From an uncultured Gammaproteobacteria bacterium (GTDB lineage: Bacteria > Patescibacteriota > Microgenomatia > CAYQLK01), in assembly GCA_964426075.1 (NCBI GenBank), contig CAYROP010000002.1, positions 1-47,345 on the forward strand: a DNA stretch of 47,345 nucleotides, given 5' to 3'. The position numbers and the translations under genes are program-made. This document shows positions 5,541-30,144 of the stretch, in pieces. The notes beneath the pieces are model-generated. The model made no database searches. It saw only the letters and a program-made list of their open reading frames with translations, and was not told where the DNA came from. Positions within the stretch are counted from its first letter, which is position 1. The number at the start of each line of letters is the position of its first letter.

Positions 5541-6608
5541 ATGTCAGAACCCGTAAGGGTAGGCATCAATGGCTTCGGACGCATCGGCAGACTCGCTCTA
5601 CGTATTTTCGAAGCAAAGTACAAAGGCGTTCTCGAGGTCGTTGCCATTAACGACCTTTGGCCACCTGAAGTCCTCGCACACTACTTCGAGTTCGACAGCA
5701 TCTACCGCGCCTATCCCGGCACGGTCAGTGCAAATATCGCAACCGAAGGCGTCCGCGGCACGATCTGTGTCGATGGACGCAACATCGTCGTGTTCAACGA
5801 ACGCAACCCATCGAACATTCCCTGGTCAGAACTAGGTGTGGAAATCGTCATCGAAGCCTCAGGCTTTTTCACTGACGCCAACCTGGCTCGTGGCCACATC
5901 GACGGTGGTGGCGCCAAGAAGGTGCTAATCTCAGCACCAGCCAAGAACGAAGACATCACCGTTGTCCTTGGTGTCAACGATCTTCTGCTCCGCCCAGAAC
6001 ACGCAGTCATCAGCAACGCCAGCTGCACCACCAACGGCCTCAGCCCTCTGGCTCTGGTCTTGGAACAAAGCTTCGGAATCGAAGCAGGGATCCTCACCAC
6101 GATCCACTCCAAGACCGGCACACAAAGCCTGACCGACAGCCCGAAACCGGACTTTGGGGACGGCAGGGACGGTTCGACCAACATGGTACCGGGTGATACC
6201 GGCGCAGCCAAAGCCGTCGAACTCGTCATTCCCAGCCTGAAAGGCAAGTTCAAGGGTATTGCTGTCAGGGTTCCGACCGCAACGGTTTCCCTGATCGACT
6301 TCTCGGTCCTCCTTAACCGGGAAACGACCAACGAAGAAATCCGTGAAGTCATGTTGGCCGCAGCCAATGGACCACTTCAGGGTATCCTCGACGTCACCGA
6401 CAAGAGGCTGGCATCATCGGACTTCATCGGCAACAGCTTCTCCTCGATCTTCAGCTCAGTCAACACTCAAGTCATCGGCCGGCTGGTGAAAATCCTTAGC
6501 TGGTACGACAACGAGTGGGGATATGCCACCAGACTCTGCGATCTTGCCGCTCTGGTAGCTTCCATGCTGGTTGCTTCCATGCTGGAATCAGCCAAGCCGA
6601 ACAACTAG
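5541..6608 (+). CDS. gap: Glyceraldehyde-3-phosphate dehydrogenase, divergent type I; GC-rich compositional outlier
   Basis: NGFGRIGR NAD-binding motif, SNASCTTN active-site Cys, TTIHS His, TGAAKAV, and WYDNEWGY near the C-terminus. SD agaagg lies upstream. Confidence 0.9.
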   Translation: MSEPVRVGINGFGRIGRLALRIFEAKYKGVLEVVAINDLWPPEVLAHYFEFDSIYRAYPGTVSANIATEGVRGTICVDGRNIVVFNERNPSNIPWSELGVEIVIEASGFFTDANLARGHIDGGGAKKVLISAPAKNEDITVVLGVNDLLLRPEHAVISNASCTTNGLSPLALVLEQSFGIEAGILTTIHSKTGTQSLTDSPKPDFGDGRDGSTNMVPGDTGAAKAVELVIPSLKGKFKGIAVRVPTATVSLIDFSVLLNRETTNEEIREVMLAAANGPLQGILDVTDKRLASSDFIGNSFSSIFSSVNTQVIGRLVKILSWYDNEWGYATRLCDLAALVASMLVASMLESAKPNN

Positions 6609-7794: not shown

Positions 7795-8583
7795 ATGCCT
7801 CATGGTTATGCCGCCAGAAACATGCCCGACTTCGATCGAAGCAGGGTAGTATTTTCAACCCACGGCATCAAACACCTGCATCATCTCGGCGACTTCTACA
7901 ACGCCCTTTTCACCCGAGATCCGAACGAAACATTCGCCATCAAGGTCGACGCTGAAATTTCGGCCTTCGTCGGGGTCGGCGCAGTCATGACCAATGCGAA
8001 TCAGATTCGCTACGGCAACACTCCGCCAATTATGCTCGACATCAAGCTCGGCGATATGCCCTCCGTGGTCGCAAATGCCGCCAAGGCACTCAGTGAAGTC
8101 CACGAGCCAGTAGCCTTCACCGTCAATCCAAGCTCCGGCATGGCAAGTCTTCACGCCGCAGTCGAAAACCGCGGCGTCTGCCAGATCATCGTCTCGACGG
8201 TCAACACCTCACTCAGTGACGACGACTGCCGACTGATCTACAACCGTGACCGAACAAGCCAAGTCATGACTTTTGCAGAAATGGCTGCCGAAGCGGGCGC
8301 ACAAGGCGTAATTGTCGGCGGATGGGAAATCGAGCTACTAAAAAAACTCGGCATCCCTTCGTCGCTCAAAATCTACGGCGCAGGAATCCGGCCCACCTGG
8401 TTCACCAACCGTGGTGACAACTACCGTACCGTTACGCCAACAGAAGCCATCCTTCAAGGCGCAGACAAGATCATCGTCGGCGGACCGGTTCTCAACCAGA
8501 ACGACCCAGAAAGCAAGCGTAGCGCAGCTCTAAAAATCCTGCGCGAAGTCAACAAAGCAATCGGGGTTCCGGCCCTAACCTAA
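7795..8583 (+). CDS. Orotidine-5'-phosphate decarboxylase superfamily protein (PyrF-like, atypical); GC-rich outlier
   Basis: LDIKLGDM matches the DxKxxD motif. AGIRP...RGDNYRTVTPTEAILQGADKIIVGGPV parallels the PyrF C-terminal PGIRP..DQxR..TP..A..G.D..V.GRP block, but with Gly in place of the Arg. Confidence 0.7.
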   Translation: MPHGYAARNMPDFDRSRVVFSTHGIKHLHHLGDFYNALFTRDPNETFAIKVDAEISAFVGVGAVMTNANQIRYGNTPPIMLDIKLGDMPSVVANAAKALSEVHEPVAFTVNPSSGMASLHAAVENRGVCQIIVSTVNTSLSDDDCRLIYNRDRTSQVMTFAEMAAEAGAQGVIVGGWEIELLKKLGIPSSLKIYGAGIRPTWFTNRGDNYRTVTPTEAILQGADKIIVGGPVLNQNDPESKRSAALKILREVNKAIGVPALT

Positions 8584-13374: not shown

Positions 13375-13408
13375 ATTGCAAAGTTCCTTCATAAGAATAG
13401 GAGTACGG

Positions 13409-14020
13409 ATGTCCCTCATCGACCGATGGACAGACCTTTGGGAAGCGATGAACTTTTCAAGTCCTCGGACTAACTTCATCGCACTCGTCAGCCGTTACGA
13501 AGATGGCAAACGCGCCTATCACAACATGAAACACATCCAGCACTGTCTCGATGAGCTAGACAAGGTCAGAGAACTGCTCGCCGACCCGCACGCAGCAGAA
13601 CTCGCGCTCTGGATGCATGATGTGATTTACGACCCCAAGCGAGCAGACAACGAAGAACGAAGCGCCGAGTTTGCTCTAAGGTGTCTGATCAGTTCCGGCG
13701 CAGCGCCTCAACTAGTGCTCAAAGTCGTCGCGCACATCCTGGCAACCAAACACCACCGTGTGATCACCAACGATCCCGACCAACCGTTCGTCCTCGACTG
13801 CGACATGGCCATCCTTGGCCAGCCCAATGAGGCCTTTGACCTCTACGACACCCAAATCGCTCAAGAATACGGTTTCGTTCCACAGGAGCGCTATCGCCAA
13901 GGTCGCAGCTCGGTTCTGCAAAACTTCGAGCGCCCGATCTTCAAAACTCCTTTCTTCCGCGACCTCTACGAAGAGGCGGCAGAACTAAACATCAAAAGAG
14001 CCATCCAAAGGCTCAGCTAA
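13409..14020 (+). CDS. HD-domain metal-dependent phosphohydrolase (COG4339-like); GC-rich outlier
   Basis: RAYHNMKH ... LALWMHDVIYDP gives an H...HD pattern. I chose the ATG at 13409 (SD aggag upstream) because the TTG at 13376 lies at or upstream of the predicted transcription start. Confidence 0.7.
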   Translation: MSLIDRWTDLWEAMNFSSPRTNFIALVSRYEDGKRAYHNMKHIQHCLDELDKVRELLADPHAAELALWMHDVIYDPKRADNEERSAEFALRCLISSGAAPQLVLKVVAHILATKHHRVITNDPDQPFVLDCDMAILGQPNEAFDLYDTQIAQEYGFVPQERYRQGRSSVLQNFERPIFKTPFFRDLYEEAAELNIKRAIQRLS

Positions 14021-14304: not shown

Positions 14305-14742
14305 ATGAATATCGCATCCTTCGCGACCAGGCCAATCGGCGTGACCGGCACCCAGTACGACTGGACGGAATCAACCGAAACCCAGTACTTGGTAAAGGAA
14401 CGCCTCAGGATCGCAGGCGACGTCGCCAGCAACAGGATCGGACTCAGGGTCACTCTCACAACCGGCGAGCAGTTCGCTGGGCAAGAAGCCGTCAACCAGA
14501 TCCCGTATCTGGCCATCTGCTACAAACTCAGCAAAAACCCCGCCAAGCTCGTCGTCCGCGCCGTGATGCTTGATCCCAAGGTCGGACCAAAAGCCAGCTG
14601 CATCGCTGCCATCAACAAATGGCGCGCAATCGAGCAGCGCGATACTGAAAACGGTGAAATGGTCGAAGCCTACTACTTCTACCACGACACCTCGGTCGAC
14701 TGGATCAACTACGAACTGCCCCAGGCAGTACCCGCAGCGTAA
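14305..14742 (+). CDS. Hypothetical protein (145 aa), GC-rich outlier, no recognisable family
   Basis: ATG preceded by aagaggag. C-ending codon bias like the other GC-rich genes. Has its own promoter and terminator. Confidence 0.65.
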   Translation: MNIASFATRPIGVTGTQYDWTESTETQYLVKERLRIAGDVASNRIGLRVTLTTGEQFAGQEAVNQIPYLAICYKLSKNPAKLVVRAVMLDPKVGPKASCIAAINKWRAIEQRDTENGEMVEAYYFYHDTSVDWINYELPQAVPAA

Positions 14743-14895: not shown

Positions 14896-14979
14896 GGGCG
14901 AGTGGCGAAATTGGTAGACGCGCAGGCTTGAGGGGCTTGTGGAGTCAAATCCTTGGAGGTTCGAGTCCTCTCTCGCCCA
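14896..14979 (+). tRNA. tRNA-Leu (anticodon GAG)
   Basis: Anticodon arm caggc-ttGAGgg-gcttg. The scaffold is identical to those of the other tRNA-Leu genes. Confidence 0.9.
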
Positions 14980-15058
14980 CAAAACATTACCAACACTAAT
15001 TTGAGCACAATTTCTAAAAAATTTAGGGTAAACTTAAAATATTAACGAAAAACTTTTA

Positions 15059-15847
15059 ATGAGTATCAAAACCTTACCACTGATTTTTATATTTACTTTG
15101 ATCGTTAGTATTTTCCCCTACAAAATAGTTTTTGCTCAAACTGAAAATACCCCTTACCAAGACTATCTTTTCAACTACAGTAGATATCAAGCTGAGCTTA
15201 ACAAACTAACCACAGCCAAAGCAGCCTACAAAAAAGATGCCTCACTACAAAATCTCACCAATCTTATTGAAACTACCAAAACAACCTATCTAACAATTGG
15301 CGATACTATGATCGCTTACAATAACTTTTTACAAACCGAAGTCGTTAACACAAATGTCGTTCCACAGGAAACGATGAGTTTTTTTAATACAACACTTAGT
15401 ACGGTTAACACTTGGTACATCGACCAGAAATCGACAATAAACAGTAATCAACCAGACCTTAAAACCATGCAAGCAACAATTAATACCTACCACAAAGCTC
15501 ACGAGCCGATTTTGCTTAAAGTTAATCAACTTAGATTAATTGCCAATTCAGCCAGAATTGCAAAATTTCAAGATGAAGCCAAAATCCTCCTCGCCAAACT
15601 ATTCACATATATAAACAGCAATGTTTCGACCCCTGACCCAAGGCAAGAAATCTGGCGAGCACAAATTATTGAAAAAGTCGACAATACTAACTTGCTAATC
15701 AAACAAAACTTCGAACTTATTCCACAAGTCAACAAATTAACAGGTGGCAACCAAGCCAACAGCCAAATCGTCAAAAATGCAAAGGCAGCGATTGAAAATA
15801 TTAATAAAACAGCTAGCTATCTAAACGAAATCAATAACACACTATGA
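15059..15847 (+). CDS. Hypothetical secreted protein
   Basis: 262 aa with an N-terminal signal-like helix (LPLIFIFTLIVSIFPYKIVFA). Probably helical. First gene of a + strand block with overlapping stops and starts. Confidence 0.55.
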   Translation: MSIKTLPLIFIFTLIVSIFPYKIVFAQTENTPYQDYLFNYSRYQAELNKLTTAKAAYKKDASLQNLTNLIETTKTTYLTIGDTMIAYNNFLQTEVVNTNVVPQETMSFFNTTLSTVNTWYIDQKSTINSNQPDLKTMQATINTYHKAHEPILLKVNQLRLIANSARIAKFQDEAKILLAKLFTYINSNVSTPDPRQEIWRAQIIEKVDNTNLLIKQNFELIPQVNKLTGGNQANSQIVKNAKAAIENINKTASYLNEINNTL

Positions 15848-20048: not shown

Positions 20049-20453
20049 CTAAATCTGCACTCCGTTTTTTTCGAGTTTTCTGGCTTTTCTTTTGGAATGA
20101 ATTTCGCACCTAAACTCCGGATATCTGTCTTTTGATCTATCATAATTAACTGTTTTGACTATCCGATAACCACGGCAAAGCTTGCCACAATCCACACATC
20201 TAACATTATCTCTTATCTCCCATTGAGTGCTTAGAGTACTTGAGGTAAAAATAAAACTATCAACCCAGAAAAAAATAAGTCCACCAATAAAGTTAGCAAT
20301 CGTTGCCGCAATCCAATCCTCACTAGTACCAAACATTGACGCTGACCCCTTAAAATACGCCACAATCGGAGCAAGTAGAGGTGTAGATAGCTGCCAACGA
20401 ATTAAATACAGTCCGTATCTTTTAAAATTAATTTTTCTTTTTACTTTTGCCAT
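20049..20453 (-). CDS. Hypothetical membrane protein with a C-terminal Cys-rich (zinc-ribbon-like) tail
   Basis: 134 aa with two or three hydrophobic helices, followed by CVDCGKLC ... CEIH. Confidence 0.45.
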   Translation of the reverse strand: MAKVKRKINFKRYGLYLIRWQLSTPLLAPIVAYFKGSASMFGTSEDWIAATIANFIGGLIFFWVDSFIFTSSTLSTQWEIRDNVRCVDCGKLCRGYRIVKTVNYDRSKDRYPEFRCEIHSKRKARKLEKNGVQI

Positions 20454-21561
20454 TTATATGTCTTTGATATTCAGTTTCGTATTGATCGACAATTTTTTCA
20501 ACCCCAAAATTAGAAATATATTTTTGTGACCAACTCATCCAAGACTGCCTAAGTTTTTTATCAAAGATCATTGATTCTAGTTTTTTGCTAAAAACCACAG
20601 TGTCTTTTGGTTCAATTACTGATTTTTGACCAAATCCCTTCATTACCGATCGGTACCCAGAATTATTACCACAAACCACCACTACGCCACGAGCCATTGC
20701 TTCAAGTAATACAATGCCAAAACTTTCTCCATAAAGTGCAGGAGAACAAAATACATCCGCTCTGTCATACATACGCACCTTCTCTTCTTCCGAAACAAAA
20801 CCCAAAAACTTCACATTCGTTATCTTCTTTTTAACAACATACTTTTCCAACTTCTCTCTTTCAGGACCATCGCCAGCTATTTCTAAAAACACATTTTTTT
20901 GCTTATTAGACAAAACTTCAAAAGCTTTAAGTAGATATTTCACACCCTTTCGTTTCTCTAATCTTCCGATGTAAATAATAAGTTTTTTCTTCTTATTTGG
21001 AGTATTTTTACGCAAATGATATTTTTCAAAATCAACACAATTTGGAATAATCTCAACTTTTCTATTGGTAATTCCTCTGACATAAATTGCTGCTTCATCA
21101 GATACCGCCGTTAGTCCATCGATTTTTTTCATTACCAGCCTCGCATATGGCTCAATAACCTGCTCAAGAACTTTTGTCACTTTTGTCTCGGGTAATTTCG
21201 CATGAAAGGTCGCAATATTGACCGCATTAGAAGCAGATATTATTTGTGGTGACATCATTGGTACCCAAGGCTCATGGAAATGCAAAATATCAAATTTTTC
21301 TTCGACCATTAATCGTCGAATTCTCTTACTTTCAATACTTAAAGAAATCTGAGCCGTAGTCTGAAAAGGGTATTTCATGTCAATTAAACCACCGATAAAA
21401 ATAACCCCCTTATGTCCACGAACATCAGTTTTCCTTGGAGCTGGAGTAATAATTACTGCAGTATGCCCACGCCTATTAAGCTCTTTTTGCAAATTAAGTA
21501 CACACTCCTGTACCCCACCATTTTTAAAAATATTGTATGGGCATATAAGGCCAATTTTCAT
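20428..21561 (-). CDS. Glycosyltransferase family 4 (GT-B)
   Basis: N-terminal MKIGLICPY...GGVQ and C-terminal ESFGIVLLEAMA, the EX7E-type motif region. Confidence 0.8.
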   Translation of the reverse strand: MKIGLICPYNIFKNGGVQECVLNLQKELNRRGHTAVIITPAPRKTDVRGHKGVIFIGGLIDMKYPFQTTAQISLSIESKRIRRLMVEEKFDILHFHEPWVPMMSPQIISASNAVNIATFHAKLPETKVTKVLEQVIEPYARLVMKKIDGLTAVSDEAAIYVRGITNRKVEIIPNCVDFEKYHLRKNTPNKKKKLIIYIGRLEKRKGVKYLLKAFEVLSNKQKNVFLEIAGDGPEREKLEKYVVKKKITNVKFLGFVSEEEKVRMYDRADVFCSPALYGESFGIVLLEAMARGVVVVCGNNSGYRSVMKGFGQKSVIEPKDTVVFSKKLESMIFDKKLRQSWMSWSQKYISNFGVEKIVDQYETEYQRHINGKSKKKN

Positions 21562-21603
21562 TAAAGCGAAGTATAACAGTATCCAACTTTAGCCTCAACA
21601 ACC

Positions 21604-21631
21604 TTGACTTTTCCTTACTTTTCCATAAACT
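21604..21631 (+). promoter_or_regulatory. Candidate promoter of the bicistronic GC-rich cassette
   Basis: TTGACT (21604-21609), 16-nt spacer, TAAACT (21626-21631). A 5' hairpin tagacc-tcaa-ggtcta follows. Confidence 0.35.
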
Positions 21632-21701
21632 ATAGGGCAACTTAGACCTCAAGGTCTATTTTGAACCTTAACTCAACCTAAGCAGACTGGAGTTTCCAAA
21701 A

Positions 21702-22343
21702 GTGTTTACCCTTCCTCTGGTGACTATCTCAGATAGCGACTGGCCAAACGACAACTCCGAACTTGGAGTCAACAACTACCGCCCGCACCCAGGCGACCTC
21801 AGCAGGTTTTTGGCTTTCCAAAGCCAAACCTACCTTGGAGCTGGGTATCACGAGCGGTACAACAATCCGATGCTCGCTGCACCAAGTAGCGAAGCAGCAG
21901 GTGGCACCATCTACTTCCACAACGACATTCGTCGTGAAGACCTTGCCGGAGTACTCCGCGCACTCGATATCAAAGACCCCCCTGGGGCTCCGAAAAAGTT
22001 CATCGTCTATTCGGCCACCAGCCACAAGCCTGGCGAAGACCAATACCTCAAACAACTCAGGTTCGTCAGCCACTTCGCAATGATTTATGGCTTCCACGCC
22101 GTCAAAGAACGCGAAGAAGCCGGACTTCCAACTCAAGAGCTCACGCTGGAGGAAATCATCTGGCTTTTCATCCAGAATCAACGCGAAGAGTGGGGAACCA
22201 GCTTTACCTCGCCCAAACTCGATCGCCTCTTCGGTGGTGACGGCTGGAATGCCAGAGAAGAACTCTCATTCGGCCTTCAGGTCGAATCCGACTACAACCG
22301 CGTCTATCGTCTCTGGAGTAGGGCATGGCTCGTCCACAAGTAA
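21702..22343 (+). CDS. Hypothetical protein (213 aa), GC-rich outlier, no recognisable family
   Basis: GTG start preceded by ctggag. Codon bias matches the other GC-rich genes. Overlaps the downstream HD gene by 19 nt. Confidence 0.6.
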   Translation: MFTLPLVTISDSDWPNDNSELGVNNYRPHPGDLSRFLAFQSQTYLGAGYHERYNNPMLAAPSSEAAGGTIYFHNDIRREDLAGVLRALDIKDPPGAPKKFIVYSATSHKPGEDQYLKQLRFVSHFAMIYGFHAVKEREEAGLPTQELTLEEIIWLFIQNQREEWGTSFTSPKLDRLFGGDGWNAREELSFGLQVESDYNRVYRLWSRAWLVHK

Positions 22344-22894
22344 AAGGTGTCGACACAACCAACTACCCAAGCTTTGATGAGCTGTTTAGTCTCATCGAAG
22401 AACCTCTTCAGGCTAGCCTAAGGGAACAACACTCCGTATGGCTACCACTGTTCAATGCTTCTCAAGGAGCAAGACACAACCACCACAGCTGGCATCCATT
22501 CGGCTACCTCGACCACGTTCAAGAATGCATGGTTTTGGCCGTCTCGCTCTACCAGCACCTTAGCCTCACCAGACCCCTGGATTTCACTCTCAGTTCAGCG
22601 CTAGCTGTTCTGTACCTCCACGACATCGAAAAACCTTTCCGCTACGTCAGAGCCGAACCCAACCTCGAAACCAAAGATCAGAGAAAAAAGTTTCGGCGCG
22701 AGTTCGTCCACAAGTGGGGAATTCCACTAAGCCCAGCCGAAATCCGCGCACTCGACCTCGTTGAAGGAGAAAACGACGAGTACTCGCCCAACGAAAGAAT
22801 CATGAAGCCCCTTGTCGCATTCTGCCACGCTTGCGACACCATGTCCGCACGCATTTGGTTCGACTTTGGCATTAGCCGAGTTAAAACCAAATAA
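22325..22894 (+). CDS. HD-domain phosphohydrolase-like protein (189 aa), GC-rich outlier
   Basis: LDHVQEC ... LAVLYLHDIEKPF ... CHACDTMSAR gives an H...HD...D pattern. SD ggag lies upstream of the ATG. Confidence 0.6.
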   Translation: MARPQVKGVDTTNYPSFDELFSLIEEPLQASLREQHSVWLPLFNASQGARHNHHSWHPFGYLDHVQECMVLAVSLYQHLSLTRPLDFTLSSALAVLYLHDIEKPFRYVRAEPNLETKDQRKKFRREFVHKWGIPLSPAEIRALDLVEGENDEYSPNERIMKPLVAFCHACDTMSARIWFDFGISRVKTK

Positions 22895-22906
22895 CTAACT
22901 TCAACC

Positions 22907-22940
22907 AGACCCGCTTTTTACTAGAAAAGCGGGTCTTTTT
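22907..22940 (+). terminator. Intrinsic terminator
   Basis: Stem agacccgctttt / aaaagcgggtct (12 bp), followed by a T-run. Confidence 0.75.
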
Positions 22941-22977
22941 CATATCTCTCCACGCTTTAGGCTTTTGTTCTGCTAAA

Positions 22978-23268
22978 ATGACAAATATGACAGACAAAAC
23001 AGTTGATACAGCCGAAAAATATCTTCGGGTAATTGACAGCAAAAAACATATCCTAGTTAATAATTTCCTTGGTGGAATTTCTTGGGCCTTAGGTACAATC
23101 GTCGGATTTTTGATAATTAGTATTATTTCTGTCATGATTATCGGCCAAACCGGCGTGTTGTCCAAACTAAGCACTTGGTTTTCGGGAGTCATAGAAAACT
23201 CACAAAAAAGTGTCATTCCAGAAGAATTAGAAAACCTTCCAACTAATGTCCGACCAACACAAAAATAA
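22978..23268 (+). CDS. Small membrane protein, hypothetical
   Basis: 96 aa with two adjacent hydrophobic helices (FLGGISWALGTIVGFLIISIISVMIIG). Overlaps the thrS start. Confidence 0.5.
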   Translation: MTNMTDKTVDTAEKYLRVIDSKKHILVNNFLGGISWALGTIVGFLIISIISVMIIGQTGVLSKLSTWFSGVIENSQKSVIPEELENLPTNVRPTQK

Positions 23269-24982
23269 AATAAATATTCATCAAATCCGCCACTCGGCCG
23301 CACACCTAACCGCCGCTGCGGTTCTCAAACTGTATCCAGAAACCAAACTAGCCATCGGACCTACAATCGATGAAGGGTTCTACTACGACTTGCTCACCCC
23401 TGAACCAATAAAAGAAGCAGACTTAGAAATCATTCAAAAAGAAGCAGAAAAACTAATTAGCCAAAATATTGACTTTATTCGGAGCGAAGTAAGTGTTAGC
23501 GAGGCCAAAATTATGCTTTCCAACCAACCATTCAAGCTAGAAATAGTTAACGAGCTCGAAACAAAAGGTGAAACAAAAGTATCTTTTTATACATCAGGAG
23601 ATTTTGTTGACCTCTGCGAAGGACCTCATGTTGATAACTCAAACCAAATTAAAGGATTCAAACTACTATCTCTGGCTGGAGCCTACTGGCGTGGTGACGA
23701 GAAAAATCCTATGCTTACTCGTATCTATGGAACCGCTTTTCATACCGACAAAGAATTGACAGAACACCTTGAACTCAAAGAACAAGCTAAACTCCGTGAT
23801 CACAGAGTAATCAGTCAAAAGCTTGAACTATTTGATCTTACAACAGAGATTGGGCTGGGTCTACCAATTTGGCTACCAAATGGCGCCACCATCAGAAGAA
23901 TATTAGATGATCTTGTTTTTGATCTTGAAATAAAAAACGGCTATCAGCATGTTTATACTCCAGCTCTAGGCAACCTCAATCTATACAAAACTTCTGGTCA
24001 TTACCCACATTATTCAGACACAATGTTCCCAGAGATCAAAGTTGAAAAAGAAACATATCTACTAAGACCAATGAACTGTCCAAGCCATATTGCTGTCTAT
24101 AACTACAAACCTCGCTCTTACAAAGATCTACCGCTTAAGCTTTCCGAAGCTGGCCAAGTTCACAGATATGAAAAATCGGGCGAATTAACCGGACTTTCTA
24201 GAGTTAGAGAATTTACAATTAACGATAGTCATATTTTTACCACTGAAGAAACCCTCAAACTCGAAATTCAAAAAACTCTCGATCAAATTATTCAGTTTCT
24301 AGAAATAGTCGGACTTACCCCTGACATATTTGAGCTCGCCTTGCACGACAAAGACGACAAAAAATATATAAAGGACGAAGAAATGTGGAAAAAAGCTGAA
24401 AATGTCCTAAGAGAAGTACTTAAAGAACGAAATGTTCAATTTAGGGAAGAAGTTGGTGGCGCAGCTTTTTATGGTCCAAAGATTGATGTTTTTGCTAAAG
24501 ACGCTCTTGGTCGTGAATTTGCGATCTCTACTTCGCAAGTCGACTTCCATATGCCTAAAGCTTTTGATCTTAATTTCATTAATTCTCAAGGAAAAAAAGA
24601 ACGCCCAGTTATTATCCACCGAGCAATCATTGGCAGTTTTGAAAGATTTTTCGCATTCTTAGTCGAACATTACGCCGGCGCTTTTCCATTCTTCTTAAGT
24701 CCAGTTCAATTTCAAATTATTCCCATATCTGAAAAATTCAGTAGTTATGCAGACGAAGTCGCAAGAACACTAAGCGAACAGCATTACCGTGTCAACATCG
24801 CCTCAAGCGACCAAACCATGGGAGAATCAATAAGAAGTGCCACCGAATCAAAAATTCCATACATGATCATCCTCGGCCAAAAAGAGGAAGAATCTCAACT
24901 TGTTTCAGTTAGATCAAGAGAAGGTGCCCAATCCAATCTGATCAAGCTTGATGTGTTCCTAAAAACACTATTAGATAAATGA
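23246..24982 (+). CDS. thrS: Threonyl-tRNA synthetase (short form lacking the N-terminal TGS domain)
   Basis: Begins in the editing/second additional domain (HSAAHLTAAAV); class II core (FRMPMNCP-like LLRPMNCPSH, HRYE, GAAFYGPKID); C-terminal anticodon-binding domain. Confidence 0.9.
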   Translation: MSDQHKNKINIHQIRHSAAHLTAAAVLKLYPETKLAIGPTIDEGFYYDLLTPEPIKEADLEIIQKEAEKLISQNIDFIRSEVSVSEAKIMLSNQPFKLEIVNELETKGETKVSFYTSGDFVDLCEGPHVDNSNQIKGFKLLSLAGAYWRGDEKNPMLTRIYGTAFHTDKELTEHLELKEQAKLRDHRVISQKLELFDLTTEIGLGLPIWLPNGATIRRILDDLVFDLEIKNGYQHVYTPALGNLNLYKTSGHYPHYSDTMFPEIKVEKETYLLRPMNCPSHIAVYNYKPRSYKDLPLKLSEAGQVHRYEKSGELTGLSRVREFTINDSHIFTTEETLKLEIQKTLDQIIQFLEIVGLTPDIFELALHDKDDKKYIKDEEMWKKAENVLREVLKERNVQFREEVGGAAFYGPKIDVFAKDALGREFAISTSQVDFHMPKAFDLNFINSQGKKERPVIIHRAIIGSFERFFAFLVEHYAGAFPFFLSPVQFQIIPISEKFSSYADEVARTLSEQHYRVNIASSDQTMGESIRSATESKIPYMIILGQKEEESQLVSVRSREGAQSNLIKLDVFLKTLLDK

Positions 24983-29278: not shown

Positions 29279-29320
29279 CTCTAGGATTTTTTTATCTCAA
29301 CAACCTTCGACTAAATACTC

Positions 29321-29349
29321 TTGACAAACTAATAACTATAGGGTATAAT
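29321..29349 (+). promoter_or_regulatory. Consensus sigma70 promoter of the ORF-free GC-rich unit
   Basis: TTGACA (29321-29326), exactly 17-nt spacer, TATAAT (29344-29349). Confidence 0.6.
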
Positions 29350-29355
29350 CATCAC

Positions 29356-30098
29356 AATAAGCAGTGTAACATCTGCTTGTCCGCTCTTTCATTTTATTGG
29401 AGGTAGAGACATGAGGCCGCCAAATCCTTCTGGTCTGTAAAAAGCCAATAGAAGGTGGCCGAGGACTCCATTTTCGTTTCGTGGCCCACTCAGGGAAATC
29501 CGCAAGGCGAGATACCTACCCGGGGAGAATAAACCCTCTGCGCGTAGTACCGCCCTGCCAAGCCAGAATTCGCCTATGGTTACTCCGCAAGAAAACACGC
29601 GGTAAATACCTAAGGCAGATAAAGGAGCACGACTACATATGGATGTCTGATTCTGTCGGCTGTTTAGCTTTGTCCTAAGATAATGCCAAGAATAGGCTAG
29701 TCGAAGGAAAAGTGGATCAGCCCCTCAAAAGAGCCCGCGAACGAACGGGCGCAGGTGGCCCCCAAAATCGCCACGAGTTCGATCTCGTGGAACGAATAGG
29801 GCGCCAACCTCGAGATCTCGGCTTCCACCTTCCGTGTAGCCCAGAATGTTGTTTTCTCTCTTACTTTAAGGGAAACGACACAAAGGCAATCCCATACACA
29901 CGGTAAAGGTCAAAGAAAGGAGATTGGCCATGCAGCGCCGGTCCTGCCAGGACCAGTAAGTCGCGACACGGTATAACGCCCCATCGCTGCCCAGCGTTAC
30001 AGGGACTAAAGAAAAGTCGTAACTTCTGGCGAAGCGACAAAAAATAATTTCGCCACCACATCCTCAAGGCCGGAGCCCACAAAGCTCCGGCCTTTTTT
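29356..30098 (+). ncRNA. Candidate large structured non-coding RNA (about 740 nt), class unknown
   Basis: Bounded by a consensus promoter and a strong terminator. GC-rich. No ORF longer than 73 aa in any frame. Dense local and nested helices. No RNase P or tmRNA signature recognised by eye. Confidence 0.45.
30068..30098 (+). terminator. Intrinsic terminator of the ORF-free unit
   Basis: Stem ggccggagc / gctccggcc (9 bp), followed by T6. Confidence 0.75.
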
Positions 30099-30144
30099 CT
30101 TATCTAAATATTTTGTTTAACTAGAAAAAAGGGGAAGACAGACA

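Follow-up and report, generated by a model that had tools for sequence, protein, structure and literature searches.

On a 47,345-nucleotide contig of an uncultured bacterium (CAYROP010000002.1, GenBank assembly GCA_964426075.1), the whole of which is called the window below, two GC-rich genes, here named A and B, overlap on the forward strand and form one translationally coupled transcription unit. Protein B is a member of the HD superfamily whose nearest characterized relative is the catalytic domain of YhaM, and protein A belongs to an unannotated family. A first-pass annotation, made from the DNA letters alone, had put the pair forward as a candidate for an undescribed two-gene system of the nucleotide-signaling, nucleotide-depletion or toxin-antitoxin-like (TA-like) kind. 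This proposal did not survive a survey of homologs, in which the two genes were neighbors in the window and its closest relatives and nowhere else. We consider it probable that A and B constitute a sigma-70-type unit of two accessory genes that are mostly independent elsewhere, were joined in the ancestor of one lineage and have been vertically inherited since.

Gene A (positions 21702-22343, forward strand) is an open reading frame (ORF) with a GTG start that encodes an acidic protein of 213 amino acids (aa), marked by a C-terminal WSRAWLVxK signature. Gene B (22325-22894, forward strand) starts with ATG and encodes a 189-aa predicted stand-alone HD-domain phosphohydrolase with a YhaM-like catalytic domain and without the OB fold. 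Both ORFs, the GTG start at 21702 and the 19-nt overlap are as the first-pass annotation gave them, and the sequence of the overlap is near-invariant in the four species compared, namely that of the window and those of three related loci, L012, L013 and L014. The start codon of A occupies one aligned position in these species, reading GTG, ATG, TTG or ATG, and the start position is confirmed by the presence of start codons in the orthologs at the aligned codon. On a reading of the sequence, A has a GGAG ribosome-binding site 9 nt 5' of its GTG (21689-21692, forward strand), and GGAG recurs about 9 nt upstream of the start in three of the four species (window, L013 and L014). The GGAG site of B (22315-22318, forward strand) lies within the 3' end of A, 6 nt 5' of the ATG, and is invariant in all four; this ATG is the sole in-frame start codon among the first 27 codons of B. 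Since it sits within the last codons of A, synthesis of B is tied to the translation of A.

The pair would be transcribed as a single sigma-70-type unit, with a promoter at about 21604-21641 and a terminator at 22907-22941. The promoter-like element (21604-21641, forward strand) comprises a -35 hexamer TTGACT, a 16-nt spacer and a -10 hexamer TAAACT (21604-21631), followed by ATAGGGCA. The single promoter region that had been placed at 21604-31 matches the consensus at just 9 of 12 positions in a scan, yet it holds up: TTGAC(T/A)-N16-TAAACT-ATAGGGCA is invariant in the window, L012, L013 and L014, with the rest of the spacer diverged, and the same block, which can also be written TTGAC-N16-TAAACTATAGGGCA, recurs 5' of a paralog of A in L013. 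The terminator that had been described as a 12-bp stem at 22907-40 was likewise recovered on the forward strand as an intrinsic terminator (22907-22941, or 22907-22936 by a narrower delimitation) with a 13-bp stem, a 4-nt loop and a T-run (-20.2 kcal/mol, z = -6.8), and its hairpin is preserved in L013 and L014 via compensatory changes. The 5' hairpin of the first-pass annotation is present in the leader (21645-21658, forward strand; AGACCU-CAAG-AGGUCU), but it is no more stable than shuffled sequence (z = -0.9 to -1.3); a hairpin of other sequence stands at the matching position in L013 (z = -2.95). Separately, the 9-mer ACTATAGGG has two exact copies in the window, 21629-21637 and 29335-29343, both in the promoter regions of GC-rich units (A and a non-coding unit, see below), where it is invariant in relatives, as it is upstream of the A paralog. 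Inspected by eye, it looks similar to the initiation region of promoters of the T7/K11 type; as a statistically supported motif we rejected it, since it is not enriched and the window has just the two exact copies.

The evidence that carries our reading is the distribution of the two families. Using one genome per GTDB species, with taxon labels taken from the submitters' record titles, we found A in 66 species, which include bacteria of the Candidate Phyla Radiation (CPR), DPANN archaea, Planctomycetota, Alphaproteobacteria, Acidobacteriota, Spirochaetia and others. Scans with hidden Markov models (HMMs) over 8 kb on each side of A placed B beside it in only three of these (L012, L013 and L014), the remaining approximately 63 being without the partner. 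For B, 32 IMG/VR contigs were positive, many of them 200-600 kb long and several with a GC fraction of 0.52-0.55, as were at least 399 metagenome stretches. Near the 32 viral B loci no A was detected, even at E <= 1, and A was not found in viral contigs. Among the 80 best metagenomic B loci, 49 of which have enough upstream sequence to reveal A, a single one (L110) has A near B, and this locus belongs to the same clade, since its B is 78% identical to that of the window. Because A and B are not found side by side outside one narrow lineage, the reading as a two-gene system is unsupported; the co-occurrence in other genomes on which the first-pass annotation had made its proposal depend is largely lacking.

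Nor does either gene keep other company. BLAST clustering of the ORFs within 4-5 kb yielded no group of more than three loci, and Pfam tallies of 116 neighbors of A and 122 neighbors of B gave nothing in more than three loci, the only recurrent "neighbors" being shadow ORFs that overlap A. The individual contexts are unrelated: A lies between smc and rpsP (L001) or beside a NUDIX gene (L009), and B beside sodA (L003), in a phage-like thyA/dCMP-deaminase block (L011) or after an APH kinase gene (L190). In two Alphaproteobacteria (L059 and L065), GT4-family genes lie no more than 0.8 kb from A, probably by coincidence.

Within the lineage, L012, L013 and L014 have the order GT4 (divergent)-A-B-DUF5665-like ORF-thrS in common; L012 lies on the same contig as the locus L005. 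The A proteins of these three are 80, 77 and 62% identical to that of the window and their B proteins 85, 72 and 59%, a divergence comparable to that of threonyl-tRNA synthetase (ThrRS), which is 90 and 80% identical to that of the window in relatives. ThrRS (thrS, 23246-24982) has relatives at 77% identity or more, in six clusters apart from that of the window, and the next are at 54% or less, a gap that marks the source of the window as an isolated small-genome lineage of which few members have been sampled; the records of the relatives are labeled inconsistently, as Gammaproteobacteria or Saccharibacteria. A and B would have been joined into one coupled operon in the ancestor of this small, isolated lineage with small genomes, and passed on vertically since.

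Several points weigh against so loose an association. The independence of A and B was judged by adjacency, and the NCBI-sourced B loci checked were three only (one contig of a metagenome-assembled genome and two short metagenome contigs), none of them in the listed A-bearing assemblies. Moreover, because relatives as distant as about 60% identity retain the 19-nt overlap as well as the common promoter and terminator, and because B has A on both sides in L013, a functional link between the two within the window's clade is possible. The second A-family gene of L013 (A', 7825-8463) is 51% identical to A, has a GC fraction of 0.55 and directly follows the A-B terminator, giving the order A-B-A'; it has its own TTGACA-N16-TAAACT-ATAGGGCA promoter. 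That A is, in this lineage, the dedicated partner of an OB-less YhaM-type B, whether as an acidic inhibitor or regulator or as a substrate-selecting subunit, and that, more broadly, its domain, which has no Pfam, PDB or BFVD match, recurs in HEAT, ankyrin and NADAR fusions and is retained in the tiny genomes of CPR bacteria and DPANN archaea, represents a new functional family, appears to us improbable; if true, A and B would amount to a new module, a regulated nuclease or nucleotide hydrolase, that draws on an undescribed fold.

A specific form of partnership would be an immunity or antitoxin-nuclease pair, with B a harmful HD nuclease and the acidic A its inhibitor, the two held in fixed proportion by the coupling, and thus a new TA-like or defense module. 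The order of a small acidic protein followed by a nuclease-like enzyme and the 19-nt overlap fit such a scheme, as does the patchy spread of both families over bacteria, archaea or phages. However, a toxin that depends on its antidote could not be solitary, and the solitary occurrence of B in the 32 viral and in 79 of the 80 metagenomic loci, together with that of A in about 63 species, therefore counts against it; so do the absence of a conserved partner of any family beside A or B and a core-genome context conserved through vertical descent. The likeness to defense and TA-like systems that the first-pass annotation saw also finds no echo in PADLOC, where the pair has no match, or in its surroundings, which are no defense island. 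As that annotation correctly had it, the pair is wedged between a GT4 gene and the thrS block: the GT4 gene lies on one side, a 96-aa DUF5665-like ORF and then thrS on the other, and the wider surroundings are a MacB-type ABC transporter with the GT4 gene and thrS-infC-rplT-pheST. The GT4 neighbor (20428-21561, reverse strand) passes the cutoff of the Pfam family "GT4-conflict" (33.6 bits against 26), the generic Glycos_transf_1 being far stronger. We hold it to be unlikely, in a high degree, that A and B are an immunity pair.

The assignment of B to the HD proteins, which the first-pass annotation had made from a signature, is borne out by conservation and by structure. Conservation across 28 relatives is complete at H99-D100, H168 and D171 and nearly so at H64; no HH pair is conserved between HD and D171 in this set, where the single H168 and the conserved G148-E149 of an EGE motif are found instead. 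The AlphaFold2 (AF2) model of B is confident (predicted local distance difference test, pLDDT, 87; predicted template modeling score, pTM, 0.86) and all-helical, with eight helices, and only about 15 residues precede the first helix of the HD domain. In a Foldseek comparison with the PDB the top match was YhaM (9h3f_A; template modeling score, TM, 0.62, probability 1.0), and the next were the small HD proteins 1xx7 and 3kh1 (TM 0.43-0.52), followed by the RelSeq hydrolase and SAMHD1. A profile of the B family run against PDB sequences picked out YhaM (E 0.004) and Cbf1 (E 0.009), with the match spanning the helix and the N-H-H...G...H motif that precede the first metal-binding histidine (9h3f, 9o7t). 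B itself has no Pfam match even at E <= 1, and none in NCBIfam or PADLOC; eight of its 28 relatives reach Pfam HD (PF01966), all of them below threshold (E >= 1.3e-4), and PHROG 5889 matches residues 45-179 weakly and below significance (E 0.017). We rejected the idea that B is a paralog of the other GC-rich "phosphohydrolase" of the window (13376-14020), to which it has no similarity.

B is not an ortholog of YhaM. It would rather be a divergent stand-alone HD metal-dependent phosphohydrolase that has kept the H...HD...D ligands and the YhaM-type NHH..G..H motif and is without the OB domain and a conserved HH pair. We infer a catalytic activity for B, which may hydrolyze phosphoester bonds at the 3' ends of nucleic acids or in nucleotides; any interaction with A would be equally conjectural. 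The distance from H64 to the HD pair is 35 residues, a spacing that may be like that of the YfbR class and would favor the explanation that follows.

According to another explanation, the pair serves the nucleotide pool: B would be a YfbR-type (deoxy)nucleotide phosphohydrolase and A a second enzyme or binding protein of ribosyl or nucleotide salvage or clean-up, in an organism dependent on scavenged nucleotides. The structural match of B to 1xx7 and 3kh1 speaks for it, and a phage-like block that holds one B homolog also encodes thioredoxin, thymidylate synthase, a DHH-family protein and dCMP deaminase. One protein (P0200) joins the domain of A to NADAR and another (P0189), on a weak match, to a BtpA-like barrel, and B is without the OB domain that YhaM uses for nucleic-acid binding (PMC12107432). 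Against these stand the first place of YhaM in the profile and structure comparisons alike, and the restriction of the nucleotide-metabolism context to one locus, the 122 B neighbors tallied showing no enrichment. We regard this explanation as doubtful.

Protein A presented no motif that the first-pass annotation could recognize, and our searches agree: it has no match in Pfam, NCBIfam, PHROGs or PADLOC, nor does any consistent fraction of 72 aligned relatives, and none of 74 relatives carries a Pfam domain or a name. An exhaustive HMM search of 1.84 billion representatives returned a small family, with 292 clusters when grouped at 50% identity. AF2 gives A a confident model (pLDDT 86, pTM 0.86), an alpha/beta domain with a long beta-hairpin at its end, for which Foldseek found no match in the PDB or BFVD (best TM <0.25). 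A sequence match to the PDB entry 9hnh_A was discarded as spurious, since it aligns a His-tag/thrombin site and a designed repeat. The invariant residues include Q118, R120, E195, R203, W205, S206, R207, A208, W209 and L210; D180 and E186 are near-invariant, and there is a glycine-rich FGGDG loop. Together Q118, R120, D180, E186, E195, R203, S206 and R207 make up a conserved polar surface. The isoelectric point (pI) of A is 5.65, and the family has a median pI of 5.3 and a net charge of -6; with this acidity and an alpha/beta model that has no PDB match, A is unlikely to stand in for the missing OB-type nucleic-acid binder.

In longer members of the family the A domain lies C-terminal to HEAT repeats (P0169, P0187, P0205, P0170 and P0174), ankyrin repeats (P0195) or NADAR, and TPR-like repeats also figure among the modules ahead of it. 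Repeat and NADAR fusions of this kind may be common among immunity proteins of polymorphic toxin systems, which would fit the immunity reading given above. We describe A as an acidic alpha/beta protein, found elsewhere either on its own or C-terminal to HEAT, ankyrin or NADAR modules.

The GC fraction is 0.54 in A and 0.51 in B, and at third codon positions (GC3) it is 0.62 and 0.57, against 0.35-0.40 and about 0.3, respectively, in neighboring genes. As the first-pass annotation stated, A and B are the sole two-gene GC-rich unit; the other islands are single genes, namely those for GAPDH, an OMP-decarboxylase-like protein, a phosphohydrolase and a 145-aa protein that is unknown, plus one non-coding unit. 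The protein-coding islands lie at 5541-6608, 7795-8583, 13376-14020, 14305-14742 and 21702-22894, all on the forward strand, with a GC3 of about 0.64 as against 0.31 elsewhere. Each is a single transcription unit with its own promoter-like site and terminator, and four of the five abut tRNA genes.

One might see in this a recent foreign cassette, that is, a GC-rich pair freshly acquired, for example from a giant phage of about 52% GC, not yet ameliorated and functionally incidental. The GC3 of A and B at twice the level of host genes, the abundance of the B family in phage contigs, several of GC 0.52-0.55, and the tendency of B homologs elsewhere to match the GC of their own surroundings are consistent with such an import. 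However, A and B occupy the same site and are equally GC-rich in all four species, although they have diverged to 59-85% identity and the 4-fold degenerate sites of the flanking genes in L013 and L014 are at or near saturation (identity 0.25-0.33; A and B are close to this, at 0.39-0.52). The composition is therefore maintained and not a relic of recent import. Furthermore, the third positions of the GC-rich genes have the C-over-G strand skew of the host (C 0.47 and G 0.17, against 0.24 and 0.084 in other forward-strand genes), and the other GC-rich gene of the window for which an orthologous position is available, that of the 145-aa protein (in L005), is just as GC-rich there even though synonymous sites in the flanking genes are saturated. 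Freshly imported DNA is thus a very improbable source of the pair.

We also rejected translational selection as the cause of the bias toward C-ending codons: C and G at third positions are both doubled in the GC-rich genes with the host skew retained, and rplT, infC and thrS are unbiased. In other CPR lineages, too, the raised GC of A is seen in codons ending in C and in those ending in G. Many of these lineages have A as a GC-rich island of a single gene, which is not the case in DPANN archaea or Proteobacteria. A look at the literature on GC islands in Patescibacteria turned up nothing relevant.

The remainder of the window provides the setting. It is a stretch of bacterial chromosome of 39% GC that carries thrS, infC, rplT, pheST, a PBP gene, ABC transporters and seven tRNAs. 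Its strand skew is very strong, with third positions of C 0.24 and G 0.08 in forward-strand genes and G 0.22 and C 0.09 in reverse-strand genes, and the cumulative GC skew falls monotonically along all 47 kb. Among the other GC-rich islands, the GAPDH (5541-6608) matches the phage family phrog_21942 very strongly (E 2e-99), and the 214-aa protein encoded at 13376-14020 matches phrog_19425, "phosphohydrolase" (E 2e-22), and no Pfam family. The non-coding unit (29310-30100, forward strand) is an ORF-less region of about 750 nt and GC of about 0.53. Its promoter, TTGACA-N17-TATAAT, is perfect, and its terminator, GGCCGGAGC...GCTCCGGCC followed by a T-run, is strong. The unit has no match in Rfam at the gathering score or at E <= 1, is 75-79% identical in L005 (about 14954-15702) and is probably an undescribed structured RNA.

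The value of these results is mostly corrective: an operon of an HD gene and an unknown partner is here not a conserved system, and its architecture alone is no ground for listing it among defense or signaling systems. Three modest leads emerge nonetheless. First, B belongs to a sizeable unannotated family of OB-less YhaM-like HD proteins that is common in giant phages and small-genome organisms. Second, A represents a small unannotated family whose fold is predicted with confidence and is without a match in the PDB or BFVD. Third, A and B are among several single transcription units in which GC3 is held at twice the genomic level across species.

Set beside known systems, the pair resembles two-gene toxin-antitoxin and anti-phage modules in being bicistronic and overlapping, with the small acidic protein first, and differs from them in having no conserved co-occurrence, no PADLOC match, and no defense island or mobile element. 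The weak match of B to PHROG 5889, a phage family without an annotated function, is consistent with its 32 viral loci. With the small HD phosphohydrolases of the YfbR/1xx7/3kh1 type, B has in common a similar size, a single HD domain, the H...HD...D ligands and structural matches at TM 0.43-0.52; it is unlike them in that these matches are weaker than that to YhaM, that none exists at the sequence level and that B has the NHH motif of the YhaM type.

YhaM/Cbf1 of Bacillus subtilis and Staphylococcus aureus (PDB 9h3f, 9o7t) is a Mn-dependent 3'-5' exonuclease with an HD domain. YhaM is a metal-dependent hexamer that degrades single-stranded DNA and RNA from the 3' end; its OB domain comprises residues 20-90, and its HD domain contributes the ligands H163, H193, D194, H250, H251 and D274, in an extended di-metal motif H...HD...HH...D (PMC12107432). 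In comparison, B is without the N-terminal OB domain and without a conserved HH pair (PMC12107432), is 189 aa long as against about 313, and is 16% identical to YhaM in the structural alignment. YhaM/Cbf1 is nonetheless its best match by both structure and sequence profile, and the two are united by the motif P-x-a-x-k-N-H-H-x-f-x-x-G-x-x-x-H, which runs into the first ligand histidine and is followed by the HD pair and the distal aspartate.

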